64,000 nucleotides of DNA from Lingula anatina (Eukaryota > Animalia > Brachiopoda). Below, piece by piece: positions 2,207 to 48,203 of this stretch. How positions within the stretch are numbered: position 1 is the stretch's first letter; every line of letters begins with the position of its first letter. Under the pieces are notes generated by a model, which was given only the letters and a program-made list of their open reading frames with translations, was not told the DNA's origin and ran no database searches. The stretch is from assembly GCA_051362555.1 (NCBI GenBank), contig CM120641.1:1488001-1552000 (forward strand), written 5' to 3'. The position numbers and the translations under genes were made by a program.

Positions 2207-5000
2207 TCAACCAAAACTTTTGAGCCTCGTGTCCTCCTCTGGAGGAACGACACACTTCCCACAATCCCCATGGGCATTAAGATCCCGACAGATGAGGAGA
2301 GCTGTGGTGGCCATGTCATCCTGGTTCCGACTGGTGGCGCCACCGTAGCTGGAAGGTTGAGACGGTCCCTGTTCTGTGGTGCCGAGCGGGATCCCGGCAT
2401 CGAAGCTTTTATCTACAATACACAGCGGGTCCATGGCTGGCTCTATAGCAGGTTCAGGCACGAACACGGCTAGTTCACAGGCTTCAGTCTCTCGTTGCAT
2501 ACCTATAAAATAGCAGTGCCTTTTATTATTTCATCATGAAAAAACAGTTGTTTTCCAAGAATCCCCTCGATTCAAGTTTTTTATTATTTATTAAAGTGTC
2601 GCATATTCTTGAAACGTAAAATGCATAAAAACCAGTATAAAATATTTTATTTTTAAAAATAAATTTAATAAATTTTACTTACAAAGAAATTATTTAACCT
2701 ATACATTGTCACTAAGGGATAGAGAAAGAAAAAGACGGAGAGACAATAAAGATAAAACACTCACTCCTCTTTCGATATCTCTTGCGCAGTCTACAAATCA
2801 GAACCGCGATGGCTACGCTGACGAGAGCAAAAACCACAGCCAAGGCGACCACGCCAACCACTGTGAATGTAACTCCACGGATGACCGGTAGAGGGCGATC
2901 TGTCTCTCGAGGAAGGATGGGTGTGGTCGAGGCAGGAAGGTCGAGGTCGGAAGGTCCAGGTGAATATTTGCTAGGCCCGGTCTCTGGCGCTCGTGTACTT
3001 AGTCGCAGGGCATTGTACGCTGAAAATGCATAAATGAATAGACATTCAATTAATATCCTAAAGAAGACAAGGCCCTTGTTTCACAGAAAAATAGTCAGTT
3101 CCCTGGCTTAGTTGACTAGGATATCGATGAGAATGGTGTAACGCTGTTCCTGATAGGGTAAGATGTGATTAAGTTCTACAGTCACAAAATTTGTCATTTA
3201 TTTGGGATAATCTGCGACATGTGACATCTAATTTTTGAAATAATTATTCCCGTACTATTAAACAGCATAATTTAATAAAACTATCTGCAATACGGTTGCC
3301 TGTCAGGAGTTTAAGTACCGAGATTTGACCTTCACATGTACGCTAACGATACTCGGCTGTACTGCCTGTAACATCAATAAATTCCCTGAAATTTCCTTAA
3401 CGAAAAAGAAAGTCGAATTTTCAATCTTACGGCATGTTTAGTAAAGAACAAATTAATGATAAAACAGACTATTAAGGCTTTCTGTCTGTGGTCAATAAAA
3501 TTCCCCAAAATTTTAAGTTATACATATCATTCATATCAGAAATTTGACTATCCAAGTGGTTTCTCTACAGCTACCATTCTAAATGCCCCATATTACACCT
3601 CGACTAGATAACTGCTGCCCTTTAACAGGACCACGGAAAATATGTGTAGACCTACTCTTCTCCATCGCGAGTAGAAAACAAAACGACCTTCTATTTATCT
3701 AAAGACATGTAGGCCTATGTGAATATCTAGTGAAAAAGCAATGTCGCCCTGGTAGAGGGTAGATAACTGCAATTTTCTTGTTCATGGATGTTCACGAGAA
3801 TTATTAAAACGTCTGCAACATATTCAAAATTTCTCTGCTCAAGTTCTTACTCGCACACCTGGCGACAGTCACGTTTTCCCTATCCTCAAACAACTTCACG
3901 GGCTACCTTTGAAAGCACGGCTTCTTTTTAACTTTTAGTAAGATAAAACGCTCACGCCGCTTTTTACAACTTGGCCCTACCATATTTATATGAGCTGCAT
4001 GAAGCATAAACTCACGACCCCCCCCCCTACCTCCGTCTCATCATTTACTGTAAACACCGTGTAAAGCTAGACTTGCTATATAGTGACAATTCTTTTAAAG
4101 TCGCTGCTCATAGGAAATGAAATTTACTTCCACTGTTAATTTGTAGGACAGACTATCCGGCTACTTGAAAAGAGAGTCCAGACCTACCTTTAAAAATATT
4201 TCATGAGTAGAAATTCTATAAACGACCTTTAAAGCGAGTGATGAGGTGCATTTTAAATTTCTGAATTATTTGTATCAATCAATTTTCCTGCTTTAATTAT
4301 TTTTCTTTTCTTTTACTAGCCTTTTTTATTATCTATTCATATTCCACTGTTTTTAAAGTCTTCTCAAAATAAATATTATTATTATTATCCTATTGTTATT
4401 AATTTAAACGATTTAATAAAACCGAGAATTTTCACTTCTTTCAAATAAATAACGATACACATCCTCATAAGCAAATAAACTACTTTGAGGTTAATTTTAC
4501 TGTTCTGGGGACCGTTTCGAGAAGCTTTCTTTAGTTAATTAGCATCGCAGATTTCTGTTGAGAAATATCACTGGATAATGTAATCTTTTCCTTTGATTTC
4601 AATTTTTTATCGAAGGAAATAAAAATGGACGACTAGAAAGTGGGGCATATACAATACACGATCATATAAAATCCTACACTGAGAGGGGGTTTTTTTCTGG
4701 TGTCATCTACGGCATAATACAGTAGACAGAAAGGCTAGATAACTCTTCTACGGGGCAATCGTGATTTGTCACCTCCCTATCACTGCTCATGCTCGCACTG
4801 CGTCCATAGGCGCGTGAGCAGTTAGACCCAGCGGAAGCTATCAGAGCGGTACATCGTCACCTACCTCTACAGTGTTGCATACAATCAAACTGCATCAGCT
4901 GGTTGTCCGTGGCACCACAAGGTAAACTACAGTCCACACATCGTAAAACACCCGGTTCACAATACTGGAAAACTGGAAGACAGCCACTACAGGGTGACAT
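2207..5000 (-). CDS. Single-CRD TNF receptor-like protein A (Grindelwald-like), 3 coding exons
   Basis: Exons ~5000-4865 (MSPCSGCLPVFQYCEPGVLRCVDCSLPCGATDNQLMQFDCMQHCR), 3019-2765 (Pro/Ser/Thr stalk, TM VTFTVVGVVALAVVFALVSVAIAVLIC, basic RLRKRYRKR) and 2502-2207 (tail with IPLGTTEQG and PPEED). GT-AG phase-1 introns join in frame. The 5' end is uncertain because no signal peptide was found. Confidence 0.8.
3800..4200 (+). mobile_element. L2/CR1-group LINE 3' fragment in an intron of receptor A
   Basis: Translates as KRLQHIQNFSAQVLTRTPGDSHVFPILKQLHGLPLKAR, matching the L2 ORF2 C-terminal LQxxQNxAARxxT...HITPxLxxLHWLP pattern. Degenerate. Confidence 0.7.
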
Positions 5001-6902: not shown

Positions 6903-8358
6903 TCACTCATTCTGTTCTGTGACTGGCATCATGGGCGTGGTCTGCTCTGTGTCTGACACCAGGGGCGTGGTCTGCTCTTTGACTGGCATCATGGGCGTGG
7001 TCTGCTCTGTGACTGGAATCATTGGTGTGGTCATCTCGTGAGATTGAGGGACTTGATGGTCAGTTGGGACTGCTACGATATGAGGACGACACTGCTGATG
7101 GCCGCGTCTGTGACACCTGGGACCACACACTAAGAAAGACAGGGTAGAAGTGAAGTCCTTGTTGAAGGGTGGTATTAAAATATAAAAAAAAGGGAATCGA
7201 AGAATATTTGCAGAGAGAGAGTTAGGGGAGTAAAAAAAGCTAAACATTTTTAAAAACGAAGTTCAACACATTGTAATTTATATTGTAGTATAGAGAATAC
7301 CTCTTTACTCACCGTTTGCTTTTTTTCTCCGCAAATAGATGATCACGGCTACAGCTGTAAGTGCAAGCGCAAGTCCCCCGAAAAACCCTGCCGAGAAAAT
7401 CAGCCCGTGAGTCAACACTTCGTCCCAACTACATGCTTTGAACTGTGGAATTGTGATATTTTGGCCAGAGGCGGCTGGCGCCTCAGACACCGCCTCCGCC
7501 TGGGTCGAGGGAACATCGGTGGGCCTTGATGGAGTTGAAATCTCTGGGTCACAGAGGGAAGGGCAGTGATGGGTGATGCAGGCGGTGACAAAAACTGTAA
7601 GATAACATAATAGTGCGACGTAATGGTGTTATAAAACACCATTCAATAAATAGAAACGCACGCTACGTACACAAAAAGAAAAAATATATATATCACCTGT
7701 ATGACATTTACATTAAATAAACAGTGGTGAATAGGCATGGTATTGAGCCCGGTGCTTATGGTAAAAAAATGAGCTATTACAGGGGCGGATCCAGGATCAT
7801 TTGAAAGGGGGGGGCGGGTCCGTGGATGCGAAGCCAATCCTCTCTCTCCCCCCCCCCCTCTTTGACGTGGGTTTCGGGGCCCGCTTAACGGTCCCAATTT
7901 TTTTTTTTTTTTTTTTTGGTATTAAGAGAGCGAACGAAGCCATTTGGTACAGATTAAAACTATGATTCGGCTAATCAAAATTCTAACGTTAAGCGGGGAC
8001 CATGGCTGTGATTTTTTTCAGAAATCGAAGGGGGGGGGGGGGGTCGGGACCCCCCTGAACCCCCTCCCCTAAATCCGCCGCTGTACATAAATGATGATAG
8101 GCGTTAAGTGTTAATGCTTCCTTGGGATTTACCTTTACAGGCCTTGATTATGCTGACGTTTGCGTTACTGGCGTAGTCGTACTCGGTCTTACAACTGGCA
8201 CATCGGCCAATTCCCTTGTCATAATACTCCAGGATTGGCTGACAATTTTCTTTTGATACCGGCTGACGAGGAATAGCGTTGAGACCGCTAACTTCAGTAA
8301 ACATTAAACAAACTAAAAATGACCAAAATATAGAATAAATCGGCTTCATGTCCGACAT
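6903..8358 (-). CDS. Single-CRD TNF receptor-like protein B (signal peptide, CRD, TM, repeat tail), 3 coding exons
   Basis: Exons 8358-8133 (signal peptide MSDMKPIYSIFWSFLVCLMFTEVSG; CQPILEYYDKGIGRCASC), 7594-7313 (CITHHCPSLC, stalk, TM GLIFSAGFFGGLALALTAVAVIIYL, RRKK) and 7129-6903 (tail ending in 4x TTPxxxxxEQ). Phase-1 GT-AG introns join in frame. An acceptor at ~8406 implies a 5' UTR exon. Confidence 0.85.
6912..7031 (-). repeat. Coding minisatellite, 4 x 30 bp (10 aa)
   Basis: TTPMIPVTEQ TTPMMPVKEQ TTPLVSDTEQ TTPMMPVTEQ. Confidence 0.9.
7780..8083. mobile_element. MITE-like element in an intron of receptor B
   Basis: Ends caggggcggat ... atccgccgctg form imperfect TIRs around G/C-run-rich internal sequence. 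Similar ends occur at 50919-51084. Confidence 0.55.
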
Positions 8359-9042: not shown

Positions 9043-12000
9043 TGTTATGTACCTTTACATATACATATGAGATGAATGTCCTAAACTTATATAATTTAGA
9101 ACGCTTAATTCAAGCGTGGGCTCGAAATAGGACATTACGTTTTAAACTTACTCGGTGGATAACGCAATTCAAAATTCCACGGTTCGTGTCATATTTACGT
9201 GAGGTCGCGCAAAGAAAACCCAAGTCCACATAATGACCAGTTTAATGGTTTATTGGTTGACGATCGCTAACTACATGTTCTATACGTGAAGCCTCCAACT
9301 TCTAAGCCGTCTCCCATAGCTCCGTCGAGCGGTTGCCTTCGAGTCTTCTTCAGTCTGCCCCCAATATTATTTCTAGACGTCTTTTATACGTATTTCTTAT
9401 CTATAGGTGGATTCTGTGCTGCAGTATTTGGCGGTACATACTAATTTTAATTATTCAAATTGCACACGTCCACTTAAGTTACACAACTACAGGTAAGGCC
9501 ATAAAACGAGTCGAGTGCACAAGCAATCGACTCTAATCAAATTAATTTACATGTCTGGCAATTATATTTGTGAACACTACACGCCTTCCCTTTTTACCAG
9601 AAAAAAAAAATACATTTTTTTTCATTTATCACGTTGGAGACATTCACTCTACATTATATTTACAACATATATACAAAGCGAAGCACGTTAATAGAAGAAC
9701 ACGTTACAGACAGGCCCGGAGGAAAACCAGAGATAAAACCCTTTAATTTATATCTTTCTTTATCAATTTAAGGAAAAATAGCTCTGGAAACCGGGCAAAT
9801 GAGCGCCTTATATTTTAAAGTCTTTAAAATTCATTTGAGTCTTTTAGTGTTTAGCCTTTCAATGGAATCATCGGCAAAACGGCGGGGTCCACCACTCTCG
9901 GCTGTAGAGTTACTTGGGTTCCAAGGCGCAGGACGGATCGGTCTAATGGATCAGCCTTGGATGCGCGGCGGGTCGGAGGCGATGACTCAGGCACGGCGAT
10001 GCAGGGACCATTCACTGTCACCTGAAACGAGACACAAGGGAAAATAAACTTTCTTCGTAAACAAAGTCAATCAGGGCTAATATGAAGAGGAAAAACACCA
10101 CCTATCATCCCAGACAACAGGAAAACCCACAGTTAGACCTAATCAAGCTACCAGCACCATCACGACCGTATCAAGCTTCCAGCGCCGTCTCGGCCTGTCT
10201 CATCAGCAACACCTGGCCATATGCTGCAGATAAAACTGTGTGAGCTACCAGTGCCGTCATGGTCTGTCTGCCAGCAATATCCGGCACATATTGCCAGCAA
10301 AACTCTGTATGTTTCCGAAGTCACAGAACACCCGTCGTATCGATCATCATGGCTGGTTACTCAAACAACAACAAGATATTAGCAAGACAAAATCTCTACC
10401 CAGTTCCCACAGAACACGGTTCTGCTACCTATCCCTTCGTGGGCAGGCATCAACATAAAAAATACCTGGTCTAAAATACCAGTCCCGACACTCCAACGTG
10501 GAGCATGGTACCCTTAAAGAAATTATCTGGTCTAACTTGCATTTATCCATCGGTGGACCTAAATTAACAAGCAGCCCTACGTCGCTAGGAACATACCAGA
10601 ATTTTTCGCTCCCATACGGAAGCAGGGAACCATTTTAAATAAATAATAAAACATCTGGTCTTACTTGCATTTATCCATCGGTGGACCTAAATTAACAAGC
10701 AGCCCTACGTCGCTAGGAATGTACCAGATCTTCTGCTCCTATTACTTAACAGCAGGATAACCTTAAAAAATAAATACTGGGTCTCTAACCTCACTTCGAG
10801 ATAAACTAACCTGTTTTCACCACGCCATATGAGCCTCCTTCCTTCATCACCCGTCACGACGTTTAATTGTCCTCTCGCATAATATAAAAGTCCAAAAGTA
10901 CACGTGTTTGTCTGTCTGTGTGTCCGTTTTTAATTACTGTCTGCCTACGCACGTGCCTTGCCTAAACCAGTTCGGTCCGGTTTATTTCGACACCCGTTTT
11001 TAATATTCCCATTATAGACCAAAGCTTTGATATTGCCTCTATATTCAAATTTGCCTAAGAACACGTTCCTTATCACCACGAATGCCGCTTCTTATCTATG
11101 TTACCAAATTCTGATGTAATCTCCAACTATTACATGTAATTCGATCGACGCAATTAGCAAACACTTGAAGTTCCTTATCTTACCGCTTGTCTCTGTCGGC
11201 CCTTGCACGACAGTTATAATTAGTAGCACAATAGCCTGTATACCTCTGAACGTTACAAATTTTAAAATCCGATCAAGACCATATCAACGTAAAACCCTTA
11301 TTTTACTATGAAGAAATTTCGTCAATCACCGAATCAATGCAACAATAACCCGAAAACATGTTAAAATACAACAACGACACCAAAAGACGATCTATACTAC
11401 CAACAACGCAAAACTTATCTTAATTTTTTTTTTTTTCGCGACGCAATCCTGAATATAACCTTTCTACGACTGCCACGTAACGAACAGCGCGTAGCTTTTC
11501 CCGAAAATTGCATTTTTCATGCACTAACGATCTCTTGCGTCTTAAAAAAAAAGTAAGCAATCTGCCTAAACCTTCCATGTACCGTAATTACGTGAAATTT
11601 TGCGACTTACATACAAAATCGACTTAAAAACTGGAGGAGCCGTTTATTCCTCTCTTACTATCATAACATTTTACTTAAAATCGGCAAGTCACCCCTACTT
11701 TGCACTGAATTTGGAAAGTTTTTAATTAATCCTAACATGAACATGCCCTGCCACGGCACGAAAAACCGTTAAAAACTAACAAAATTTTACACAAAATCCG
11801 AAATTAAAATACTTGTTACTGCAAGATATAAACAATAGTTCATACTTACCGGCCGGTAGGTGATACTGCCTGGCCGACCGATCTTCGCTGCGCGAAGACA
11901 TACCCTTTCTATACTTACCTCCCCGTCTGGCCATTTTGTGTCTAGTCAGGTCTTCCTTGTGCGCATTGGAACGTAAACTGGCGAAGCTCAGCCAAATATG

Positions 12001-12537
12001 TTATGTACCTTTACATATACATATGAGATGAATGTCCTAAACTTATATAATTTAGAACGCTTAATTCAAGCGTGGGCTCGAAATAGGACATTACGTTTTA
12101 AACTTACTCGGTGGATAACGCAATTCAAAATTCCACGGTTCGTGTCATATTTACGTGAGGTCGCGCAAAGAAAACCCAAGTCCACATAATGACCAGTTTA
12201 ATGGTTTATTGGTTGACGATCGCTAACTACATGTTCTATACGTGAAGCCTCCAACTTCTAAGCCGTCTCCCATAGCTCCGTCGAGCGGTTGCCTTCGAGT
12301 CTTCTTCAGTCTGCCCCCAATATTATTTCTAGACGTCTTTTATACGTATTTCTTATCTATAGGTGGATTCTGTGCTGCAGTATTTGGCGGTACATACTAA
12401 TTTTAATTATTCAAATTGCACACGTCCACTTAAGTTACACAACTACAGGTAAGGCCATAAAACGAGTCGAGTGCACAAGCAATCGACTCTAATCAAATTA
12501 ATTTACATGTCTGGCAATTATATTTGTGAACACTACA
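9043..12537 (-). mobile_element. Young non-autonomous LTR retrotransposon (Gypsy-like 4-bp TSD)
   Basis: 539-bp direct repeats at 9043-9581 and 11999-12537 look identical by eye and are bounded TG...CA. TSD CCGG on both sides. On the minus strand there is a polypurine tract beside the left LTR and a TGG-starting PBS-like site beside the right LTR. No gag/pol ORF in the 2.4 kb interior. Confidence 0.92.
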
Positions 12538-12544
12538 CCGGGCG

Positions 12545-13840
12545 GGGGAAATCTCACGAAACCTCCGGGATTTTCGTTGTTTTAAAATAACTTGCGATAA
12601 TGCAGGTATCTATATGGAGAAACCGGTTGTTCTAATATTCAGGCTCCGATAAGAACTGAAAACACAAAGAGAATGCTGAATATCGCCAGGTGTAGGTCAA
12701 AGATCACTATATATCCGGTCACACGTGGCAGCTCCTTGCCGGCGTCTGTATGCATTTACGTGAATTTACCAATAAAAATTAAAAACTGCGCATGAACCGT
12801 TTATCACGGTGTTGTGGAAAGTACTACCTCTGTTACTTGATGTTTACTTATATAGCAGACTTCCTGACATCGGTTAGTTAGTTAGGGCACTTCTTTAAAC
12901 GTTGACTAAAGGAATTTCCCGCCAGAGAGAATTGTTAGAGGCTCTCTCCACGGGGGCGTCTTGATAGTCCGAAGGTTCATTGGTCCGAAAAGTGGTAACA
13001 CTTTCATCGATTTTTTAATCAAGGGTTCATTGGTCCGAAGGTTCTATAGTGAACATTCGGACCAATGAACCTTCGGACTATTGAACCTTCGGACTATCGC
13101 TACGGCCCCCTCTCCACACGCCTCTCCCCACAGTCATACGTGCGTTCTGTAAAGCATTTTTATTATTTCCCAAAATTCAGACAGCAAAGACAAAAAACTT
13201 TATATAAGTTTATCTAAAGCGTACTTTGTGTCTTTATCTTATCAGCCTCCTCGGGTAGCCACTGCCGGTTTTCAACGTCTGTATTACACGCGGAATAGGT
13301 CCGCGATACCAAACGACCCGCCATTTTTTTTTTTTTTTTGCGAGAGATGAGGCAATATGCAAGCCGTTAATAATGAGTGGCCAGTCATTTAAACTAAAAT
13401 ATCCAATTAAAAATGGAACAAACATCAAATCCAAGTGCAAAGACAGGTCAAGCAATTATACTCAAGTAGGACGAAATTTATTTTGGCGGGAAAATCCCAT
13501 GAAGTGTCCCTTTTATCTTGTCAATTTTCTGGACAACCCACCCAAGCCTACCCCACCAGAAAGATGACATAGAACCGTTTGAAGATAAAATCTTGACTCA
13601 AAGCTGGTGTAACGAAACTGAGGGTCGATATAAAAGAAAGTCCGCCCTCCATATAGTTATAATGGTAAGGGTTAGTCTGACATAAGTGGGTCAAAATCTA
13701 AGGCGAGATTTACCTGTACAAATGAATGGGAAGCGGACTCTCTATCATGGGGGACTCCGTCACGTTACACTGGCACTTGCAATTACTCAGCGAGACTTAA
13801 AGGTACATACGAACCGAGCATCGGTGGAGCGGGGATTCCC
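12545..13840 (-). promoter_or_regulatory. kB-site cluster and candidate core promoter upstream of receptor B
   Basis: GGGAAATTCC (minus strand, 12911-12920), GGGAAAATCCC (13488), GGGGATTCCC (13831), and weaker GGGGAAATCT (12545) and GGGATTTTCG (12567). Minus-strand CAGGAAGT (ETS-like) followed by TATATAAG near 12850. Confidence 0.55.
12952..13109. mobile_element. MITE with TIRs built from ~17-bp subrepeats, 8-bp TSD
   Basis: gatagtccgaaggttcattggtccgaa at the left end pairs with ttcggaccaatgaaccttcggacta at the right end. Flanked by ctctccac on both sides. Confidence 0.75.
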
Positions 13841-14413
13841 AGTAACACGTGTAAACCTCTACTAGTTTCAAATAAATTCAACATACCAAGGGGTAAAATG
13901 AATAGATCACTCGGTCAGCCATAAGAGCTTAGACTGCTTTCTTTAAATTTTTAGGCGGAAATTTAACCTACTTTCGGGACCCACTTTTCTGCCCCATTGA
14001 CTTACAGCATAGAATGCGAGCAGAAAAATCTGTTCAAACATTAAACAATGCCTTTTGGTATTTCTCTTAGTTATACTACTTGAAACTATATGATGGTATT
14101 TGGTCGGGGCTTTTTTTTTGGCAAAAAATGACTTTGTATGCATCTTTAAACATACTTATGACTTCTTTGCAATTATGGAAATATTTTTATCTCTTCAAAT
14201 TTATTACTATTAGATGTTACTTTTTTATTACAGACTTTGTATGCCCATACTAACTGGAACATAATTTACTGACATTATTTTTTGACATCGACAAATATCA
14301 GTCGTAATATCTGATATTGTACATTTCTTCCTCTTGGAAATGAAAATTAAATAACTTTTTTTTTGTTTTTTTAAATCCCCAAGAATCCATTTTGCTATGT
14401 GGTAGCACTGATA

Positions 14414-17400
14414 TCAAGGCTTCAAGGTCTTCATTACCTGGAAAATATTAAAAAGAAAATTTCATTCTTGAAGCTGTTTGACTCATTGGATCTATTCTTA
14501 CAAAACATACAACAAACAATTTTGCAAACAGAAAAGTCTACCTTTTTATTGATCTGTTTTATTTCTAATGCAATTTTTGAAATTCATTTGATAACAGAAA
14601 TAAATATGGATAATTTTTTTGCAAATGCAGATAGCCATCTAACAAAAAGAAATTTCTAAATCAACATTCACATACACCTACCTCCTCAAACTTATGGATC
14701 TGCCTGATAAAGAAATCTCCATAGCGACGCGCCACCTTGGTGTCTGCTATGTGAATCATATCCTGTGAGGGGGATTAAAAGAAAAACTTGATAAACATAA
14801 ATTACACAAAAAATATCTTTCCTGAATTCAAAGCTAGCAACCTTAAAGACTTGCATTTGACTATTATGGGGTAGTCTTTCCTATAAGACTGAATACATTT
14901 ATTCATTTGCTCATAAATGTGAGCTATTCATTTTCATATCTTGAAAAGTAAGGCATTTACTGAAGAAAATAAATTGTTCTGAATTTTGTTTTGGTCCAAA
15001 ACTGTTTCCCCAAGACCTGACATTGAGGCAAGTTGAAAAAAGGCGCCGAGAGGCTAACCTGTTTTTCCTAAATCATGTACTGTCCTTCAAAATTTGGAGA
15101 AAAGATGATAAAATTATTTTCAAAGCAACACAACCCACTCGCTTACAAATTTCATCTTAAGATGTAACTTTCCAAGCCTTCTTACCTGATCAATATAGAA
15201 ATCCACTTCAGAAGCAGACTGGAACTCTCCCTCCAGACCACTGCAGCTCCCTGTCCAGACCACGTTCTTCATCTTGTGCTGAAATAACAGAAACAATGTG
15301 TTAGCTGTGACTGTCTCAACCAACTACTCATTGAGTTAGGAATAGAGTTAACTGCGATTGTTTTAACCAACCACTAAAATCATGACCTTGAGAATTTTCC
15401 CTAGGTTGATTAAATGATAAAATTCAATGTTTTATCTGTTTAGCAAAGGTCACAAATGAAAAATTAATCCTAAATATAAAAACATTTTCTTTAGTACCCA
15501 AAAGATGACTACAAGACATTATGTAAACAAATACCTACCTTAAAACACATTAAATGATTTCTCAGATCCTCTTCTGACTAAAAATGAAAAAAAAAAAAAA
15601 AGAAAATACAAACCAGTGAGCTGTTAAACAGTGAAGTTTTGTTGCAATTTTATTTTCCAGTACAAAATTATTTAAAATTTTTCACAGGGAAGTAGTTACT
15701 GTATCACAGAGTGCAAAAAAAAAGTGCAAAGAGCAGTGACACAAGGGGGGTTCTGGTTCTCTTTCCCTCTTCCTAATCCTGTATCTAACATAATAAATAT
15801 AATCTTAACCATTTACCGTTTCCATGAAGGCCGCCAGCTTTGATAATGTCAGTGTGGTGTACAGCTTCAGATAGCTGAAAAAAAAAAAATGGGTAAAAAG
15901 CGGTAAAATTAAAACCACAACTTAACTCCATTCAAAATTCCACAACTTTTTTCTCTGTAAAATCCAAGTCAGGATTTTAAAATGTAAATTTTAAGCTATA
16001 AAATGTTGCATAATTTTAAACTGTAAAATGCAGCATAAAGACTGCTGATTATTACTACATAACCTATTAAACCCAGTCATGGTTAGGAATGCTACAGCAA
16101 ACAACATTAGTAGTGCACTGACAAATTGATTTATGTGTGCATTAACTGATTACACATCTTATTTACAAATCAAAATTTATAATTTATACTGACTGGATAT
16201 ATGATAGTGTAAGAAAAAAATCTCCTACAATACAGACATTCCTAAAATAATAAGGTGAAAATGTAATTGAGCTTGAGTAAAATTCCCTAAGATCAGGAAA
16301 TCTCCTCAAGCATCCCCTCCTTGGTTGTGTTAGATGTGACAGTACACAATGTGTCTGTGCTCACCTTCTTATAGTTGGTAGCAATGCCTGCTGGGTAACC
16401 TCGTCCATAAACACCTTCAACTGCTGCATAAACGGTTCCTGGAGAACAATATGGAATTATATAGCTATACTATTCACATAATTTTCATATTAAGGGCTAC
16501 TGATAATCTATCAGATAATCTTCTATAGATATTTACACATTCAGTATTGTTACAAAATCTATTACACAATCCTTTACAGAAAATACCTTTTTTTATATTT
16601 ATTTAATTGAAATCTCCCTTTGCTTAAAGCTAGCAACATGGAAATGGCACTCATTATGGTTAAACTATCCAAATTAGTGAAGAAAAACTGATATTCATTA
16701 AAAAAAAACCTATGTGTGATTCGTTTTTTACCTTGTGGAAGTTGGCAGGTGTGGCGTCGTAGTTTGGCGGACAGGGAGACAGGAACTTAGGACAGGCAAA
16801 AGAAAAGCTGTTCTGAAACTCCAGGACGTCCCTAAATGTGAAAGCAACTCGTGTTAAAAGACAAGCAAACATGCTAACTTGCAACAAAATACTACATTAG
16901 GATATACCAAAAGTGATATTGCATGTGAATCAAGGAAGACATATTATCAATATAAGCATCAGAAAAATTTTATATTGAACCCTATAACGAAACAAAAGAC
17001 ACTTCAACATTTACCCACATTTACACTAAAATCCTTACTACTTAAAGACAAGGTCAGTTCACAAAATTTCAATGTTTTTTGAAATCTGTCCTCCCCATAT
17101 ACATCACACAGCAAACACTTGCCCTTTCTGCATCTTGAGCATTCTGTCTCCAAACTTCTCCCTGAGCTGTGTGTGCACACTCTCATCTATCCTCATAGGG
17201 TGCAGCACCAGACATATAGCAAGGAGGGTGTACATCTGTTCATTCTGCTTGTTGATCTACAGGGAAGTGAACACAGACCATTACATATGTACAATCATAA
17301 TATTTTTTTTAAAATTATGCAGAAAATGAAACAGAACAAGCAGTGGACATGACCCTGAATAAAAACATTTTAATTGCTTGTTTATTCATTAGACACAAAA

Positions 17401-20400: not shown

Positions 20401-20800
20401 AGTTGACCCACCTGGTAGATAAACTCATCAATGATGTCCCACAGCCACTGGTTAGGTAGCTCTAGGGGCACTGGGCTCTCTGCACCTAGACACATAACAG
20501 AGGGGGGCAATACAATTTATCTTTTATATACAGGTTATGAGTAGTTCTGTTAAAGGAGAATGAACATATGTGTTTAGATTTTCAGATAAAATCTACTGAA
20601 CTATAAATTATAATTTCACTTTTACTCCATAGTCAAGCCTTACACAACTGAATGACACTCACTAAGAATGTAATTGAAAAGGTTGCAGTAGTTGTAGTAG
20701 GATTCAAATCTCTGCTCCTGTGTTGGCCCAGTCTGGAATGGATTTAAGAAAAAAAGTTAATACCACAGGGACAATATTTACTTTGAAATATACAAAGTTT

Positions 20801-20862
<62 letters not shown>

Positions 20863-30800: not shown

Positions 30801-30922
30801 CGTATTTATGCAACTGGTTTTAGATTTTGATATAGAAACACATTCTTGAAAAACCTCAAGAACATTCTTATTGTTATTGCATATATGAATAGGAAATGCA
30901 CATCTGCACAAGACTTATTCAG

Positions 30923-33900
30923 ATGGGGAATTCTGTTTTTAAGCAGATGATTCCTGTATTCATTTGGACACTGATAGCAGTGATTGCACTCTGTATTCCT
31001 GCCAGCAATGCAGCACACATTGACTGCACATGGGACACTTACAGAGACAAAGGAACCAATAGATGCGAGCCTTGCAGTAATCTCTGTCTTCCAGCTAGAG
31101 GAATGATGGAGGAATGCAGGAGACGCTGTGAAGGTAATTGAGATGTCGTTTTCTTACAACACGTATGAATAATTTTGTCTGAGCACATAAGCACTGAGCA
31201 TTTCATTTTATTTTGTTTTCTGTTCTGATGTAAGAATTTAATCCCCTTTGGTACTTCTTAAATTTTAGTAGCATTTTACTCATAAAAAATTATACACAGG
31301 TTTATGGTTTGCATTTATCTGTGGGGGGGGGGGGGGGGGGGGGCGACAGTATGACTAGTTTAGAGATATATTGTAATATGTTAACTGACATTGACAAAAT
31401 CAATATAAATGGCCTTTGTGTAGCCTGTGCTGAAAAATTTCCCTGATAGCCCATTTGGGACATATGGGTCTGACAACATGAGTACAGACACATGCCACTG
31501 TAGCAGAATTATTGGTGAGCAACTGAACAAAGTCACAAAATTTTTCTTGTCTTGATTCAGTATTGCTAACGTACCAGTCTGTGGTGTGGGAACAGTGCAT
31601 AGTGACATTCCAAGATGCATGCGATAATGGATGGGTTTTTTTTTTCTTCTTCTTTATTTATTTATTTTTTTTTTTTGAATCTTTCAATTTTATTTTTTTC
31701 TGTAGACTTCTTACAGAGGAAGGCTGCGGATGCAGAACCTGTCGTTGACAATAAAGAACCTGTCGAGGACAAGGATGAACCTGAAGGAAATCTGCCGGGC
31801 TGGGCGACTGCATTGGTGGTGGTACTGGTTGTCTTGATCTCTGGCTTGATCTCTGCTGCCATACTTTACAAAATTAACAAATGCAAGAGGAGAAATACTC
31901 AACATGCAGGTACTCACACTTTACAAAGTAGATAGAAACTGTCTTTTAAAAAAGTAAGAAAAAGACTGATAGATTACTTAATGGCAAGTTTATCTTTGTT
32001 GTATATCTATTTTGTAATTTATTGTTATAATTAGTACCACCAGCGTGTACGCTGGCGGTACTCATGGTTTTAGTCCCGACCCGTCACGTACAGTTCCGCT
32101 GGCTCCTGCGGCTCCGCAGGATGGCGTGGGATACAAGTCACCACTTCTCCTCCTAGACTGCAAGGACCTGTGTCCCCATCTATTGGATTTAGGTCACATA
32201 TAATCTCAGCTTGAACCCCCTGGTTTTTTTTGTCTCAGTCGGTGCATTGGCCTGGGCGTGAGGCTTGTTGAAACGCACCCTTGTCAAAATTTTTGAAAAT
32301 TCAAGCCAAATATCTCCCAACCCGAAGGAATTATGGGAAAAATTTCTACAGATGGCTGACCGAAAGTCATATGTGGAGATTTCAAATATGCCCTTGGATT
32401 TGACCTTTGACCTTTATTTCAAAGTCAAACGGGCCAAAATTTTCTAAAAATGGGAATTTTTTTGCGAAAATTGTTTTATTTCTGCCAATTTTCAGAAACT
32501 ACACAGATTTAACCAATAATATTGTGGGCAGGTGTTACCCTTAGGGTTATCTTTCATCTTCTTGCGTTTGGGGTTAATCGGTGCATTTTCACAGGAGTAG
32601 CAGCCGTTAGATGCTGAAATTGAAAACTCTCTAATTCTGGAACCGTTAATGCTAGAGACCTCTTGTTTTATGTACAGACACAGATGTGTCTGTACATATT
32701 GCCATCACCTGCGTCTGTCGTCGCCGATCATGTCGCTGTCGCCGTGCACTTTCAGCGTTAACACCATAAGTGGAAGACAGTTTTACTTTTTGGCTTTATA
32801 TTTACAGAGCTGACTAATATTCATAAAACGCAGGTCAAGTTCGAAAATCAGCATGATCGGGCCATTATTGTAGAATTTATGCTGTTTTTCCACTTTTTAG
32901 CATATATGCAACACTGTTAACACATTTCAAGGAAAACCGATAGGCCTGTTGTCATGAAACTCACAGGAGTAATCAGTCTTACTAAAACGCAGATCAAGTT
33001 CGAAAATCGGCATGATCGGGCCACTATTTTAGTAGTTATGCTGTTTTTTCACTTTTCAGCATATATGCAACACTGTTAGCACATTTCAAGGAAAACCGAT
33101 AGACCTGTTGTCATGAAACTCACAGGAGTAATCAATCTTACTAAAACGCAGGTCAAGTTCAAAAATCGGCATGATTGGGCCACTATTTTACTAGTTATGC
33201 TGTTTTTTACACTTTTCAGCATATATATGCAACACTGTAAACACAATATAAGAAAAACAGATGGGCCAATTGTTATGAAAGTCACAGGAGTGGTCAGTTT
33301 TACTAAAATGCAGGTTGAGTTCGTAAATCAGCATAATCGTGCCATTATTTTAGAAGGTATGCTGTTTTTTCACATTTCCTCAGATTCAATTTTTAGGCAT
33401 GTTAACAGTCTCATTATTAAACTAATAAGATACGTGAAAGTGTTTGTTTGACATTTCCTGCATCTTTACAACATTGTTAGTTGATTTTGTAAAAATGATG
33501 GTAAACATGTTATCGTGTATTGTGTAATAAAGTTTCAAAAATGGAAATAAACTCATATCATTGCAGTTTGTCAGATTCAATCATTCACTATGTTCAGAAT
33601 CTCAGAATGGAAGAAATTGGACATTTAACACTGCTTTATTGATATTTTTCTCATCTCATCAATTTTTTTAGTTGATCATATAAAAATGGCAGTAAACTGT
33701 TAATTTTGTTTTATGTTAAAAATTGTTATAAATGGGGAAAAAAACATTTCAGAACAGTACTGTCTTGTTTACATTTTGGCATTTTCAAGTTGTGACTTTG
33801 AAGTTCCATGGGCCTGAAGACCTTTGCTAGTAACATTTTCTGAATATCCATGATACTAATATTTTATTATTAAAAATTGATGGTCATTATGCTGTTAAAC

Positions 33901-36900
33901 ATTATGTAATATTGCATCAAAATTTGAAAAAAACCTATTTTGGGCACTGCTCCCATGATTACCTTTTAAGAAAAACCATGTCACTTACTGTTCTCAAACT
34001 TACAGGAAAGAAACATGGGACTAAAATACAGCTTCAGTAGAACGCAATCTGCCAGTTAAACAGTTTTTTTGTGAAAATTTAATTTTTCACATATTGGCAT
34101 TTTCAAGGTGTGACTTTGAAGTTCCACAGGCTTGAAGACCCAGGCTAGTCACATTTTCTGAAAATCCATGATACATATATTTTGTTATTAAAAATTGATT
34201 GTCATTATGCAGTTAACCATTATGTAATATTGCATCAGAATAGAAGAAAACATAATTTTGGGTGCTGCTGCCATGATGACCATTATGGGAAAACCATGTT
34301 ACTTATGATTGCCAAACTTTCAAAAAAGAAATACAGGACTAAAATGCAGCCTGAGTTGAAAAAGCAGTTTAATTGACTTCTTTTTCTGGAAGTTTTACAT
34401 TTTCAAAGTGTGAACTTGAACTCCCATGGGCCTGAAGCCTTATGCTTGTTTCACATTTTACTTACATTGGTATTACCTGTTGAGCATAATTAAAATTTGA
34501 TGTTGAATTTGCAGTTTAACATAATGTACTTTTGCATCAGAATTGACAGTAGCCTATTTTGTTATTTCCTGCTTTTTGTCTGTACATTTGACAGCTTTGC
34601 TGCCTTGTTTCCATTTTGTAGAGCTTGTCAAGTGCAACACTGAAGGTGGTTTCCGTTTTTTGTTTTCGATACGGCGTATTTGTTGTACTATATCAAAAAG
34701 TTCAACATCCAATATTCAGTGGTGAAAATAAAATGTGAAATACTCCAAAATTAGCAGAGACATGCCCATAGCTACTGTTGAACTTGAATAGGAAGTCATA
34801 TACTGGTAATCTATCTGTGACCTTGAAATTGACCTTTGACCTATTTTTCATGGTGAACTGCCCTTTGGAAGTTTTCTGATCTTTATATCTCCAAAACTGG
34901 CAAAGATATGCCCATAGTTACTATTGAACTTGAATAGGAGTCATATACTGGCAATCTTACTGTGATCCTGAAATTGACCTTTGGCCTTATTTTCACCATG
35001 AACTGAACTTTGGAAATTTTCTTTCCCTTATATCTCGAAAACTGGCAGAGATAGGCCCATAGTTACTATTGAACTTCAATAGGAAGACCTTTCACCTACT
35101 TGTTATGATGAACTGTACTGTGCATGTTTTCTGGCCTTTATATCTCCAAAATTGGCAAAGAAATATCCATAGTTAGTATTGAACCTGAATAGGAAGTCAT
35201 AAACTGACCTTGAAATTGACCTTTGATCTACTTTTTTTATCATGAACTGAACTTGCATATTTTCTTGCCCCTCTAATCTTCAAAACTAAGAGAGATGCCC
35301 AGTGTTGCCTGTAGGTTTTTTTTTCTTTTGTCAGCATATATGCAACACTTAACACATTTCAAGGAAAACTAACAGGCCTATTGTCTAGAAAATCACTGGA
35401 GTGATCAGTGTTAGGAAAATACAGGTCAATATTGGAAAAACCACTTGATTGGACCATTTTTACAGTTATGTTCTTTGTGTATTTTTGCATATTTTGAGAA
35501 CTCTTGTTTATTGCATTTTATAGAGCTTGTCAAGCACAAGACTGATAGTGGTGTCCCTTTTTTTTTTGGTTTTCCATCCGAATGCGCTTACTCCAGCTGG
35601 TGGTACAATATCCGGAGGCGGTATTGCCTCTCTGATCCTATAGTTATCATTGTTATTGAAGGGTGAGATCAAAATCACTTGATTCATCCCTCCTCTCTGA
35701 AATAGATTCATTTGCCCTTTAATAAATCACACATTGAGCACATATATCTTTTTAGATCAAGATACATCTGTGATGCAACCAATGGACCCAGCTGGAGATC
35801 AGCCTGAAGAAGAGGACAGACCATGCCGTAAGAAAAGGACTGATAGATTTCTTTATGACAAAGTTATCTTTCATGCACATCTATTCTATAATTTATTATA
35901 GTTATTGTACCACCAGCGTTGGCGCTGGTGGTACACATGGTTTTAGTCCCGCCCGGATCATTCCGCCGGCTCCGCCGGACGGCTACCGTCACCGCTTCTC
36001 CTCCTAGACGGTAAGGGCCCCCGTACCCATCTCTTGGATTTAGGTCACCTATAATCTCAACTCGTTCCACGTAAAATTTGGCTTTGTCGGTATTGGGGTC
36101 TAGGTGTGGCACTCATTGCAATGCACCCTTGTCTAAAAATGGCAAAATTAAATGCTAATTATCTACCCTACGGAAGGAATTATGGGAAAAATTTCTACAG
36201 ACGGCTTTCCAAAAGTCATATGTGTAGATTTCAAATATGCCATTGGATTTGACCTTTGACCTTTATTTCAAGGTCAAACGGGCCAAAAGTTTCAAAAAAA
36301 TGAATTTTTTTACGAAAAAAAAATTATTTGCCCTGTTATTCAGACACCACACAGATTTAACCAATAATATTATTGGAAAGTGTTACCCTTCAGGTCATCT
36401 TTCATCTCCGTGAATTTTGGGTCAATCGGTGCATTTTCACGAGAGTAGCGGCCATAAGATACCGAAACTGAAAACTGTCTGTAATTCGGGAACCGTTAAT
36501 GCTAGAGACCCATTCTTTTTTGCATTTTGTAGAGCATGTAAAGCCCAACACTGGAGGTGGTCTCTGTTTTTTTGTATTCCATATGGTTTTCGAGCTACGC
36601 TGTATCAAAAAGTACTTATTGGTGGTGAAAGCAAAATGTGCAGTACGGTAATGATTAATAAATTTTGAACTCCAGAAAAATAAAACATAAGGCTTGGCAA
36701 AGCAGACAACTTGTGGTCAAAAATGACATTATTTCATCAAATATGAACTTCTGGAACTTCAGAGCACCTCCCATTTCAAGAATTTTGACCAAAATGACCT
36801 TTTCTTTATTTTAATTAAAGTGATAATAACTCTTCGTTTCGGCCAAAAAATGAATTTTCCTGGAGTAAACAACAATTTTCCCATACTTACCAATGGTTAA

Positions 36901-39900
36901 TGAATCCATTTTTACATTCAAAGTTAGTCCCTGGTTTTTTTCTAAAAAGTTTGGTTTTTTGTTAAAATCTCTTAAGAGATTTTAACAGAGTATAGCCATC
37001 AATGGAGGTCACGTGGTCTAAAGACAAGCTCAGATATCAGAATAATAGCTATAACAGCCGTTTTTGTGAGAAAACAGAATATATTATATTTTTATGAGTC
37101 ACTCACAATGTTTTTATTGTGAAATACAGATTTCATACGAAGAGTTATTATCCCTTTAATTTTTTCTGTAGGAAATTTATGGCACATTATGGTAACCCCA
37201 AAATTATAACATTTAGTCCCTTATATCTCCAAAACTGGCAGAGATAGGTCCATAGTTACTATTGAAGTTGAATAGGAAGTCATATACTGGCAATCTTACT
37301 GTGACCTTGAAATTGACCTTTGACCTACTTTTCACCATGAACTGAACTTTGCAAATTTTGCTTCCCTTTTATCTCCAAAACTGGCAGAGATAGGTCTATA
37401 GTTACTATTGAACTTGAATGGGAAGTCATATACTGGCAATCTTAATGTGACCTTGAAATTGACCTTTGACCTACTTTTCACCATGAACTGAACTTTGCAA
37501 ATTTTGGTTCCCTTTTATCTCCAAAACTGGCAGAGATAGGTCCATAGTTTCTATTGAAGTTGAATAGGGAGTCATACTGGCAATCTAAGTGTGACCTTGA
37601 AATTGACCCTTGACCTACTTTTCACCATGAACTGAACTTTGCAAATTTTGCTTCCCTTTTATCTCCAAAACTGGCAGAGATAGGTCCATAGTTACTATTG
37701 AAGTTGAATAGGAAGTCATATACTGGCAATCTTACTGTGACCTTGAAATTGACCTTTGACCTACTTTTCACCATGAACTGAACTTTGCAAATTTTGCTTC
37801 CCTTTTATCTCCAAAACTGGCAGAGATAGGTCCATAGTTACTATTGAACTTGAATAGTAAGTCATATACTGGCAATCTAAATGTGACCTTAAAATTGACC
37901 TTTGACCTACTTTTCACCATGAACTGAACCTTGCAAATTTTGGTTCCCTTTTATCTCCAAAACTGGCCGAGATAGGTCCATAGTTACTATTGAAGTTGAA
38001 TAGGAAGTCATATACTGGCAATCTTACTGTGACCTTGAAATTGACCCTTGACCTACTTTTCACCATGAACTGAACTTTGCAAATTTTGCTTCCCTTTTAT
38101 CTCCAAAACTGGCAGAGATAGGTCCATAGTTACTATTGAACTTGAATAGTAAGTCATATACTGGCAATCTAAATGTGACCTTAAAATTGACCTTTGACCT
38201 ACTTTTCACCATGAACTGAACCTTGCAAATTTTGGTTCCCTTTTATCTCCAAAACTGGCCGAGATAGGTCCATAGTTACTATTGAACTTGAATAGCAAGT
38301 CATATACTGGCAATCTTACTGTGACCTTGAAATTGACCCTTGACCTACTTTTCACCATGAACTGAACTTTGCAAATTTTGCTTCCCTTTTATCTCCAAAA
38401 CTGGCAGAGATAGGTCCATAGTTACTATTGAAGTCGAATAGGAAGTCATATACTGGCAATCTTACTGTGACCTTGAAATTGACCTTTGACCTACTTTTCA
38501 CCATGAACTGAACTTTGCAAATTTTGCTTCCCTTTTATCTCCAAAACTGGCAGAGATAGGTCCATAGTTACTATTGAACTTGAATAGGAAGTCATATACT
38601 GGCAATCTAAATCTGACCTTGAAATTGACCTTTGACCTACTTTTCACCATGAATTGAACTTTGCAAATTTTGCTTCCCTTTTATCTCCAAAACTGGCAGA
38701 GATAGGTCCATAGTTACTATTAATCTTGAATAGGAAGTCATATACTGGCAATCTTACTGTGACCTTGAAATTGACCTTTGATCTACTTTTTTTATCATGA
38801 ACTGAACTTGCATATTTTCTTGCCCCTCTAATCTTCAAAACTAAGAGAGATGCCCAGTGTTGCCTGTAGGGTCTTTTTTTCTTTTGTCAGCATATATGCA
38901 ACACTTAACACATTTCAAGGAAAACTAACAGGCCTATTGTCTAGAAAATCACAGGAGTGATCAATGTTAGGAAAATACAGGTCAATTGGAAAAACCACTT
39001 GATTGGACCATTTTTACAGTTATGTTCTTTGTGTATTTTTGCATATTTTGAGAACTCTTGTTTATTGCATTTAATAGAGCTTGTCAAGCACAAGACTGAT
39101 AGTGGTGTCCCTTTTTTTTTGGTTTTCCATCCGAATGCGCTTACTCCAGCTGGTGGTACAATATCCGGAGGCGGTATTGCCTCTCTGATCCTATAGTTAT
39201 CATTGTTATTGAAGGGTGAGATCAAAATCACTTGATTCATCCCTCCTCTCTGAAATAGATTCATTTGCCCTTTAATAAATCACACATTGAGCACATATAT
39301 CTTTTTAGATCAAGATACATCTGTGATGCAACCAATGGACCCAGCTGGAGATCAGCCTGAAGAAGAGGACAGACCATGCCGTAAGAAAAGGACTGATAGA
39401 TTACTTTATGACAAAGTTATCTTTCTTGCACATCTATTCTATAATTTATTATAGTTATTGTACCACCAGCGTTAGCGCTGGCGGTACACATGGTTTTAGT
39501 CCCGTCCGAATCGTTCTGCCGGCTCCGCCGGACAGCTACCGTCACCGCTTCTCCTCCTAGACGGTAAGGGCCCCCGTACCCATCTCTTGGATTTAGGTCA
39601 CCTATAATCTCAACTCGTTCCACGTAAATTTGGCTTTGTCGGTATTGGGGTCTAGGTGTGGCACTCATTGCAATGCACCCTTGTCTAAAAATGGCAAAAT
39701 TAAATGCTAATTATCTACCCTACGGAAGGAATTATGGGAAAAATTTCTACAGACGGCTTTCCAAAAGTCATATGTGTAGATTTCAAATATGCCATTGGAT
39801 TTGACCTTTGACCTTTATTTCAAGGTCAAACGGGCCAAAAGTTTCAAAAAAATGAATTTTTTTACGAAAAAAAAATTATTTGCCCTGTTATTCAGACACC

Positions 39901-41685
39901 ACACAGATTTAACCAATAATATTATTGGAAAGTGTTACCCTTCAGGTCATCTTTCATCTCCGTGAATTTTGGGTCAATCGGTGCATTTTCACGAGAGTAG
40001 CGGCCATAAGATACCGAAACTGAAAACTGTCTGTAATTCGGGAACCGTTAATGCTAGAGACCCATTCTTTTTTGCATTTTGTAGAGCATGTAAAGCCCAA
40101 CACTGGAAGTGGTCTCTGTTTTTTTGTATTCCATACGGTTTTCGAGTTACGCTGTATCAAAAAGTACTTATTGGTGGTGAAAGCAAAATGTGCAATACGG
40201 TAATGATTAATAAATTTTGAACTCCAGAAAAATAAAACATAAGGCTTGGCAAAGCAGACAACTTGTGGTCAAAAATGACATTATTTCATCAAATATGAAC
40301 TTCTGGAACTTCAGAGCACCTCCCATTTCAAGAATTTTGACCAAAATGACCTTTTCTTTATTTTAATTAATTTTTTCTGTAGGAAATTTATGGCACATTA
40401 TGGTAACCCCAAAATTATAACATTTAGTCCCTTATATCTCCAAAACTGGCCGAGATAGGTCCATAGTTACTATTGAAGTTGAATAGGAAGTCATATACTG
40501 GCAATCTTACTGTGACCTTGAAATTGACTGTTGACCTACTTTTCACCATGAACTGAACTTTGCAAATTTTGCTTCCCTTTTATCTCCAAAACTGGCAGAG
40601 ATAGGTCTATAGTTACTATTGAACTTGAATGGGAAGTCATATACTGGCAATCTAAATGTGACCTTGAAATTGACCTTTGACCTACTTTTCACCATGAATT
40701 GAACTTTGCAAATTTTGCTTCCCTTTTATCTCCAAAACTGGCAGAGATAGGTCCATAGTTACTATTGAACTTAAATAGGGAGTCATATACTGGCAATCTA
40801 AATGTGACCTTGAAATTGACCTTTGACCTACTTTTCACCAGGAGTTGAACTTTGCAAATTTTGCTTCTCTTTTATCTCCAAAACTGACAGAGATAGGTCC
40901 ATAGTTACTATTGAACTTGAATAGGAAGTCATATACTGGCAATCTAAATGTGACCTTGAAATTGACCTTTGACCTACTTTTTATCATGAATTGAACTTTG
41001 CAAATTTTGGTTCCCTTTTATTTCCAAAACTAGCGAGATAGGTCCATAGTTACTATTGAACTTAAATAGGGAGTCATATACTGGCAATCTAAGTGTGACC
41101 TTGAAATTGACCTTTGACCTACTTATTATCATGAACTGAACTCTGCTAATTTCTTTCTCTTTTAACTCCAAACCTGGCAGAGATAGGTCCATAATTACCA
41201 TTGAACTTGAATAGGAAGTCATATACTGGCAATTTTCTGTGACCTTGAAATTGACCTTTGACCTACCTTACGATGAACTTAAATTTGATTGTACCATTTT
41301 TAGTTATATATATTTTTTGCATATTTTGAAAATTCTTGTTGATTGCATTTTTACATCTTGTCAAGCACAAGACTGGTGGCTATGTCCCTTATTTTGTGTA
41401 TGTGGGGGTCTATAGGAATGCGCTTGCTCCAGCTGGTGGTACAATATTCGGAGGCGGTATCGCCTCTCTGATCCTCTAGTTGTTATTGAAGGGTGAGTTC
41501 AAAATCACTTGATTTATCCCTCCTCTCTGAAATGGATTCATTTGCCCATAAGTCACATATTGAGCACATTTATCTTTTTAGATCAAGATACATCTGTGAT
41601 GCAACCAATGGACCCAAGACGTGGAGTTCAGCCTGTAGAGGAGGATGGACCTTGCTGTACGGTCACCAACAAGACCACTGTCTAA
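30923..41685 (+). CDS. Single-CRD TNF receptor-like protein C (BCMA/TACI-type CRD, TRAF-motif tail, C-terminal PDZ-binding-like motif)
   Basis: Exons 30923-31133 (signal peptide; CTWDTYRDKGTNRCEPCSNLCLPARGMMEECRRRC), 31706-31909 (acidic stalk, TM WATALVVVLVVLISGLISAAILY), 35756-35827 and 39309-39380 (72-nt phase-1 duplicates DQDTSVMQPMDPAGDQPEEEDRPC) and 41582-41685 (DQDTSVMQPMDPRRGVQPVEEDGPCCTVTNKTTV*). The start could alternatively be at 30896 or 30947. Confidence 0.8.
32030..35645 (+). mobile_element. Helentron-associated (HINE/DINE-1-like) element 1 with several internal tandem arrays
   Basis: 5' subTIR gtaccaccagc with an adjacent inverted repeat, 3' subTIR gctggtggtac (35596), 3' stem-loop gaggcggtattgcctc (35615-35630), and a tagtt end. 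Internal arrays of ~159 bp, ~317 bp and 146 bp. Confidence 0.75.
35903..39198 (+). mobile_element. HINE-like element 2 (chimera of the element 3 5' part and the element 1 3' part)
   Basis: Same subTIR and stem-loop layout. 35205-36817 is nearly identical to 38760-40370 (offset ~3553 bp). Confidence 0.75.
37215..38800 (+). repeat. 146-bp satellite array, ~11 copies
   Basis: The aaaactgg anchor recurs at 37231, 37377, 37523, 37667, 37813, 37959, 38105, 38251, 38397, 38543 and 38689. The unit contains tgaccttgaaattgacctttgacct. Confidence 0.95.
39456..41481 (+). mobile_element. HINE-like element 3 with ~6 copies of the 146-bp satellite (40425-41270)
   Basis: subTIRs gtaccaccagc / gctggtggtac, stem-loop gaggcg-gtat-cgcctc, and a ctagtt end. 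Confidence 0.75.

Positions 41686-47703: not shown

Positions 47704-47734
<31 letters not shown>

Positions 47735-48171: not shown

Positions 48172-48203
<32 letters not shown>

Follow-up and report, generated by a model that had tools for sequence, protein, structure and literature searches.

Three candidate single-domain TNF receptor genes, one of them probably degenerate, near an NF-kB gene of the brachiopod Lingula anatina

We identified three genes, here called A, B and C, in a stretch of 64,000 nucleotides (nt) of the brachiopod Lingula anatina (assembly GCA_051362555.1, contig CM120641.1, positions 1,488,001 to 1,552,000; this whole stretch is referred to as the window and its numbering is used throughout). 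There are good grounds to regard all three as TNF receptors that have just one cysteine-rich domain (CRD), without a death domain, of the type represented by Grindelwald, BCMA, TACI and Fn14. The gene order in the window is A, B, eIF3L, C, NF-kB and PARG. Splice-site scans gave three coding exons for each receptor gene, joined across GT-AG introns of phase 1, and the spliced open frames are 228 (A), 244 (B) and 164 (C) amino acids (aa) long. Gene A is located on the reverse strand. Its exon 1 (4865..5000) carries the start codon and an eight-cysteine domain (C4, C7, C14, C21, C24, C28, C40 and C44), exon 2 (2765..3019) encodes a Pro/Ser/Thr-rich stalk, a transmembrane helix at about aa 102-120 and a basic juxtamembrane stretch, and exon 3 (2207..2502) encodes a tail of about 106 aa with the sequence PPEED, a major TRAF1/2/3/5 motif, and a stop codon that ends at 2207. 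Gene B lies in tandem with A on the same strand. Exon 1 of B (8133..8358) encodes a likely signal peptide and a partial domain with four cysteines (C39, C53, C56 and C74), exon 2 (7313..7594) encodes additional cysteines (C81, C86 and C90), a stalk, C130 and a transmembrane helix, and exon 3 (6903..7129, stop ending at 6903) encodes a tail with short Thr/Pro/Met repeats. These repeats (6903-7040), of the Thr-Thr-Pro-Met type, number four in B and two in its RefSeq relative, and the two tails differ in length by 20 aa. Gene C is located on the forward strand, with a signal peptide and a six-cysteine domain containing CXXCXXXC in exon 1 (30947..31133; an alternative in-frame ATG is present at 30923), a short acidic stalk and a transmembrane helix in exon 2 (31706..31909), and PVEED and a terminal T-x-V in the tail exon copy that matches the RefSeq relative (41582..41685). 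In A, B and C alike, exon 1 ends one residue past the last cysteine.

In word-based homolog searches each of the three first exons retrieved one Lingula anatina RefSeq protein annotated as uncharacterized, so the genes are not hidden, as an initial annotation made from the bare sequence had called them. The joined models aligned with these relatives without gaps at all six junctions. Gene A is identical to LOC112041282 at 224 of 228 residues; its RefSeq cluster has three members, corresponding to three A-like loci, and the other two relatives match at 217/228 and 209/228. Identity is 192/244 between B and LOC106170144 and 117/164 between C and LOC106170145. The best RefSeq identity is therefore 98% for A, 79% for B and 71% for C, which suggests, as far as sequence comparison goes, that Lingula has more paralogs or hyperdiverged haplotypes. 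Because B and C are far more distant from their RefSeq relatives than A, these relatives could be paralogous genes or alleles that have diverged strongly. With the assignment made here, three brachiopod proteins that are annotated as uncharacterized and missed by Pfam acquire a likely identity.

The cysteine core on which the initial annotation was built is found at exactly three places in a six-frame scan, 4982-4929 (-), 8244-8191 (-) and 31025-31075 (+), and the corresponding motif has three matches in the six frames of the window compared to none in 200 block shuffles, a control that is post hoc as the motif was derived from genes A, B and C themselves. The last four cysteines of A (C24-x3-C28-x11-C40-x3-C44) correspond, by cysteine spacing alone, to the C2 consensus C-x3-C-x11-C-x3-C given for Grindelwald in published passages (PMC8024323). 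The CXXCXXXC signature and the full C2 module are present at 4940 (-) in A and at 31064 (+) in C, and the C2 pattern did not occur in 200 shuffles. Tyr13 of A, a tyrosine common to the three genes, is found at the position of the core Phe46 of Grindelwald, and a putative Grindelwald-type domain with eight cysteines in X2-C2 arrangement and a core aromatic residue was found in gene A only. The hairpin tips of the three genes read [DE]-x-G where BCMA, TACI and BAFF-R have Asp-x-Leu, as had been noted initially; the latter motif, described in passages of PMC8024323, was not found in any of the three tips. A profile built from the three domains aligned with Grindelwald (6ZSY) without gaps over 41 residues at an expectation value (E) of 0.49, which placed it second of six behind DR6 (E 0.053), and a second profile from which B was left out ranked 6ZSY first (E 0.064). 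Searches of the PDB with single sequences of exon 1 of A and C gave four and seven matches at E 0.18-2, none of them significant, among them p75NTR at E 0.54-0.69. A profile search of 1.84 billion representative sequences returned four matches, two of which are Lingula proteins. One match (P0006) was rejected as a repetitive artefact of 550 aa. The only plausible match of that search from outside Lingula is the ENA protein P0007, which has an eight-cysteine domain resembling the Grindelwald type (E 7e-4).

The A-type domain was modelled with AlphaFold2 on the RefSeq relative P0002, which is 89% identical to A over the domain. The model consists of a hairpin plus helices, with a mean predicted local distance difference test score (pLDDT) of 76 and a predicted template modelling (TM) score of 0.44. 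In a Foldseek search with this model, Eiger-bound Grindelwald was the first match (probability 0.99, TM score 0.72, root-mean-square deviation 3.0, 31% identity, E 0.11); most of the next matches were BCMA chains, and TACI and Fn14 came further down. Among 48,161 chains compared by VIA-align, Grindelwald, BCMA, TACI, BCMA and Fn14 took ranks one to five, with Z 5.0 for Grindelwald (root-mean-square deviation 2.6, 44 residues aligned) and Z 3.1-2.3 for the next four; eight chains in total reached Z 2 or more. By these scores the predicted A-type domain superposes on 6ZT0. In the ESM Atlas, the clusters nearest to the A relative were TACI clusters (0.95; one of 100 shuffles came to this value) and a mollusc cluster (0.93), and those nearest to the C relative were a mollusc cluster (0.95), a cluster named protein grindelwald (0.93) and Fn14 (0.92); the Atlas model of the whole C relative gave TM scores of 0.30-0.39. 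The language-model search and the structure search thus each rank Grindelwald, TACI, BCMA and Fn14 first. For the modelled A-type domain, it is the agreement of ranks across searches that constitutes the evidence, and no score is strong by itself. The domain of A is predicted to fold as a beta-hairpin and two helices, like Grindelwald, and C is predicted to be a six-cysteine version resembling Fn14 and BCMA. The initial assignment to the TNF receptor family is upheld for A and C by the embedding and structure searches, and B is a probable degenerate member.

Each of the three genes encodes a single transmembrane helix that is no more than about 120 aa away from the CRD; hydropathy is highest at aa 102-120 in A, 145-163 in B and 98-116 in C, and in all three there are five to seven basic residues just after the helix and none to two before it. 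The N-terminal hydropathy maximum is 0.81 for A, 1.51 for B and 2.44 for C. By hydropathy, no N-terminal hydrophobic segment or signal peptide was seen in A, and all three RefSeq relatives of A begin at the same methionine. The layout that the initial annotation described as shared is indeed found in the three exons and phase 1 introns of A, B and C, but this is not one architecture since A lacks the N-terminal hydrophobic segment. Type III topology is described for BCMA, TACI and BAFF-R in PMC6001812, and A therefore appears to resemble them in this respect. Two AG sites lie a short way upstream of the A start, at 5019 and 5013, so that an upstream exon may exist.

The tails are 46-106 aa long, and no death domain was detected at cut-off by Pfam scans of eight receptor exons and four full-length RefSeq relatives, in agreement with the initial annotation. 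Six TRAF-binding patterns, taken from passages of PMC6125299, were compared with the tails. PPEED, a Px(Q/E)E motif plus an acidic residue, is present in A and all of its relatives (four of four sequences) and arises in about 2% of shuffled A tails; PVEED is present in the C tail, and none of the six patterns was found in B or its relative (0/2). TRAF-type motifs, which all three genes had been said to have, are therefore found in A, with three of three relatives, and in C itself, and not in B. Both C and its RefSeq relative terminate in T-x-V, which fits the class I PDZ-binding pattern. The tail exon of C occurs in three copies, a triplication that is absent from the initial account, and which goes back to an older duplication (about 80% identity) and a recent one (98.5%). 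The two further copies, at 35756..35901 (+) and 39309..39454 (+), are truncated, share an identical first 74 nt and retain the acceptor site, the reading frame and PxEE, and both would give the protein a different end. Intron 2 of C is made up, over 31954-41659, of nested duplications and arrays of a repeat of about 146 base pairs (bp) at 34.7-35.3, 37.2-38.85 and 40.4-41.3 kilobases (kb), with hairpin and CTAG-like ends that we take to recall Helitron-derived elements.

Several observations weigh against the assignment of the three genes to this receptor class. No TNF receptor family of Pfam scores in the exons or relatives: no family reached cut-off in the eight receptor exons (the 33-aa tail exon of C was left out) and four full-length RefSeq relatives, and PF09257, PF09305 and PF09256 had no match in them at E up to 5-10. 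It should be added that PF00020 also misses known grnd proteins (bioRxiv 10.1101/2024.07.27.603686, available text). No individual sequence or Foldseek match to a known receptor is significant alone (all E > 0.05), and the VIA-align Z score of 5 is below the bar of about 8 of that tool. The residues of Grindelwald that contact Eiger according to published passages, Thr51, His66 and Asn67, are replaced in A in the ungapped register of the profile. About 7% of A tails contain the four-residue Px(Q/E)E by chance after shuffling, and the RefSeq relative of C is without the motif (1/2 sequences). Exon 1 of B has no match to CXXCXXXC and is missing the inner cysteine pair. Pairwise BLAST among the three relatives gave weak similarity restricted to the hairpin (E 0.002-0.07), so the duplications would be old and the tails unrelated; by this comparison A, B and C are products of an old duplication, of which the hairpin core is the only alignable part. 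Finally, a comparison of exon 1 of A and its upstream region with four RNA runs, 6-25% of each being read, gave three reads from one run, 90-95% alike and all confined to A exon 1, with no spliced joint among them; two of the remaining runs gave no reads and one gave a single off-target read. In favour of the assignment, the three reads do lie on this exon and share eight differences, six synonymous and two giving residues of relative P0002, and the read depth fits all three ending about three bases before the predicted donor site.

The assignment is least firm for B, which does not have the class signature and is probably a degenerate member. The hairpin cysteines and the outer pair are retained, and the core described initially as shared by the three genes is incomplete in B, where two of its cysteines are lacking and three extra ones are present at the start of exon 2. 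These features, together with the absence of a TRAF motif and a weak sialomucin match in Pfam below cut-off, could also be explained if B is not a TNF receptor at all, but a cysteine-rich membrane protein of mucin-like character, unrelated or fully derived, whose sole common feature with A and C is a short hairpin motif. We consider this unlikely, as B has the exon layout and intron phases of A and C, ends its first exon at the same distance from the last cysteine, stands in tandem with A and gives its best pairwise alignment, in the hairpin, with A (E 0.002). Modelling, which the initial annotation had proposed as a check together with Foldseek, and which for the A type returned Grindelwald first, yielded a low-confidence model for B (pLDDT 54). 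With this model VIA-align found unrelated helical chains only (best Z 3.8), and the top three Foldseek matches were BCMA, Grindelwald and BCMA at probabilities of 0.12-0.21. As the alignment behind the model contained A and C sequences, these searches give no verdict on B either way.

The genes surrounding the receptors were recognized by Pfam and are those named initially. eIF3L (Paf67 family; 14400..21800, about 14.4-22 kb with approximate ends, reverse strand) separates B from C, an NF-kB gene of the p105/p100 type with a Rel homology domain, ankyrin repeats and a death domain occupies about 46484..56379 (reverse strand, ends approximate), and PARG is also present in the window. The initial annotation had placed a cluster of receptors next to NF-kB; this is correct for C, whose end is at a distance of 4.8 kb from the NF-kB gene, and does not hold for the set, since B and C are separated by eIF3L and the distance to A is about 41 kb. 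A 119-bp repeat (79% identical) is found both at the 3' end of C (41752-41870) and within one of the NF-kB introns (50918-51035). No tRNA genes were found in the window, and eleven other long frames, in the interior of a transposable element described below, the region upstream of B and the C intron, had no Pfam match.

A search of the window with the consensus for NF-kB binding (kB) sites gave eight distinct sites and 13 matches, compared to 5.8 expected, and five of 100 shuffles reached 13. Upstream of B, between 12546 and 13840, there are perfect sites at 12911, 13489, 13749 and 13831 and sites with one mismatch at 12546 and 12567. The four perfect sites fall within 930 bp (12911-13840), none of 300 local shuffles had four within 1 kb, and the probability under uniform placement is 0.001; the cluster had been noticed before it was tested. 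On the strand of B, a TATA-like box is present at 12854 (-), plus a donor-like site after the kB site at 12911. Between B and the cluster a long terminal repeat (LTR) element is inserted (9043..12537), with identical 539-bp TG...CA repeats and a 4-bp target duplication (CCGG). Were the element absent, the kB sites would be 0.7-2.0 kb from the start of B. The LTR element is young and likely non-autonomous, with ends resembling a primer-binding site and a polypurine tract and a 2.4-kb interior in which the longest frame started by ATG is 82 aa; donor-like sites (-) are present within it near 11850 and 11917. Upstream of the NF-kB gene (58797-59180) are a perfect site (58844-58854) and three sites with one mismatch (58797, 58826 and 59170), a pattern which suggests possible autoregulation of this gene. 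Isolated perfect sites are found at 22914, near the start of eIF3L, and at 26304, 4.6 kb upstream of C. All these are consensus matches with a putative regulatory function, and the cluster upstream of B suggests that regulation of B, rather than linkage, may be the connection to NF-kB.

The proximity of the receptor genes to the NF-kB gene is probably incidental. It had been read initially as linkage of the receptors to their likely downstream transcription factor, and nothing that we tested supports a functional role for it. If the locus were a functional NF-kB module, in which shared regulation keeps the receptors near NF-kB and eIF3L and a feedback loop operates, the 4.8-kb distance of C, the kB-type sites clustered upstream of both B and the NF-kB gene, and the presence of relatives of both A and C on one 824,092-bp contig of another assembly would be expected. 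Such a module is improbable, however. Linkage is weak evidence because eIF3L interrupts the set, with A and B 38-41 kb off, because the chromosomes of Lingula arose by fusion accompanied by heavy mixing (PMC13121700, in part), so that chance neighbours are likely, and because fly Grindelwald signals through JNK and not NF-kB; the available passages of a paper (PMC7674686) report no role for NF-kB in invertebrate TNF signalling as of 2020. Regulation through kB sites moreover works without the NF-kB gene being linked. In the human genome, EIF3L and TNFRSF13C may both map to 22q13.

Judging by what is described for Grindelwald (PMC8024323) and for Fn14 (PMC3920183), A and C most likely bind a trimeric TNF-type ligand, with A recruiting TRAFs and C recruiting TRAFs and a PDZ scaffold. 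A trimeric ligand of the TNF/Eiger type would bind three receptor copies at the hairpin tip, and receptor clustering would expose PPEED of A, and PVEED of C in this haplotype, to TRAF adaptors, which would drive JNK and possibly NF-kB. The terminal T-x-V may link C to a PDZ scaffold. B would more likely be a modulator or decoy, because its domain is incomplete and its tail without a TRAF motif, and would probably be induced by NF-kB through the kB cluster upstream. That A and C have the single-domain fold but bind a non-TNF ligand or act without ligand, like fly Wengen, for which a paper title (PMC10514202) gives an unconventional role in the FGF pathway, is doubtful: neither the Asp-x-Leu tip nor the contact residues of Grindelwald are conserved in A and C, but Grindelwald itself binds Eiger tightly without Asp-x-Leu (PMC8024323, passages), and modelling of annelid grnd paralogs supports ligand binding, as a prediction only (bioRxiv 10.1101/2024.07.27.603686, available text).

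Gene A is the most informative member of the set because it combines the spacing of Grindelwald with an apparent lack of a signal peptide. A more speculative proposal, to which we give a low probability, is that A is a living intermediate with the eight-cysteine Grindelwald domain and type III topology, that Grindelwald and the B-cell survival receptors form one bilaterian subfamily, and that this subfamily was split in Lingula into a TRAF-signalling A, a PDZ-anchored C with switchable tail exons and an NF-kB-induced decoy B. If true, TNF signalling in a protostome would here be subject to feedback from NF-kB. The three genes offer a compact set with which to ask whether fly single-domain TNF receptors and those of vertebrate B cells form a single ancient subfamily, and whether NF-kB can be engaged by TNF receptors in invertebrates, which according to the passages of PMC7674686 had not been shown as of 2020.

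The class to which these genes are assigned has been described across invertebrates. A preprint (bioRxiv 10.1101/2024.07.27.603686) reports 115 grnd homologs in 148 proteomes, defined by a single domain with CXXCXXXC, and lists Brachiopoda in a tree legend; its main text contains neither 'Lingula' nor a matching accession, and its supplements may include A, B and C. Among literature titles and the openings of abstracts, none on these Lingula genes was found, the available text of PMC11463336 has nothing on them, and the PITA preprint covers, in its available part, a p75NTR-like Lingula receptor that is distinct from A, B and C. A and C therefore belong to a described class, as new members or possibly as ones listed before, and as this class is already in print, the gain is incremental. 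The bridge between Grindelwald and the BAFF/APRIL receptors that the initial annotation had put forward is not novel for the same reason: the feature is real and its family was correctly guessed, and its novelty was overstated.

In comparison with the invertebrate grnd-like receptors of this preprint, A and C are alike in having a single CXXCXXXC domain followed by one transmembrane helix, and lineage-specific sets of paralogs are likewise reported, with up to 12 in an annelid. B differs in failing the signature, and the term 'signal peptide' does not occur in the main text of the preprint. With Drosophila Grindelwald (6ZSY and 6ZT0; PMC8024323, passages), A has in common the eight cysteines, spaced identically between the second and the eighth, the core aromatic residue, the absence of a death domain and a TRAF-type motif, and Grindelwald is its best structural match. 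A differs in the Eiger-contact residues and in its first loop, which is C-x2-C, and the ectodomain of Grindelwald starts at about residue 30, whereas A is without an N-terminal hydrophobic segment. BCMA (TNFRSF17), TACI (TNFRSF13B) and BAFF-R (TNFRSF13C) are similar in having a single functional domain of similar topology and no death domain; their type III topology (PMC6001812, passages) is that predicted for A, and TACI clusters are nearest to the A relative in the ESM Atlas. Genes A to C differ from them in the tip motif and in the lack of a match to the family profiles, structural scores are below those for Grindelwald, and B and C have signal peptides. Fn14 (TNFRSF12A), a TRAF-signalling receptor that has one domain and lacks a death domain (PMC3920183, passages), is similar to C in its type I topology, six cysteines, short stalk and tail of less than 50 aa with Px(Q/E)E. 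C differs from Fn14 in having no match to PF12191, and in its RefSeq relative the TRAF motif is lost and the terminal T-x-V kept instead. Although they fail the tip-motif and profile tests of those families, A and C would, by analogy, likely work like BCMA, TACI and Fn14.

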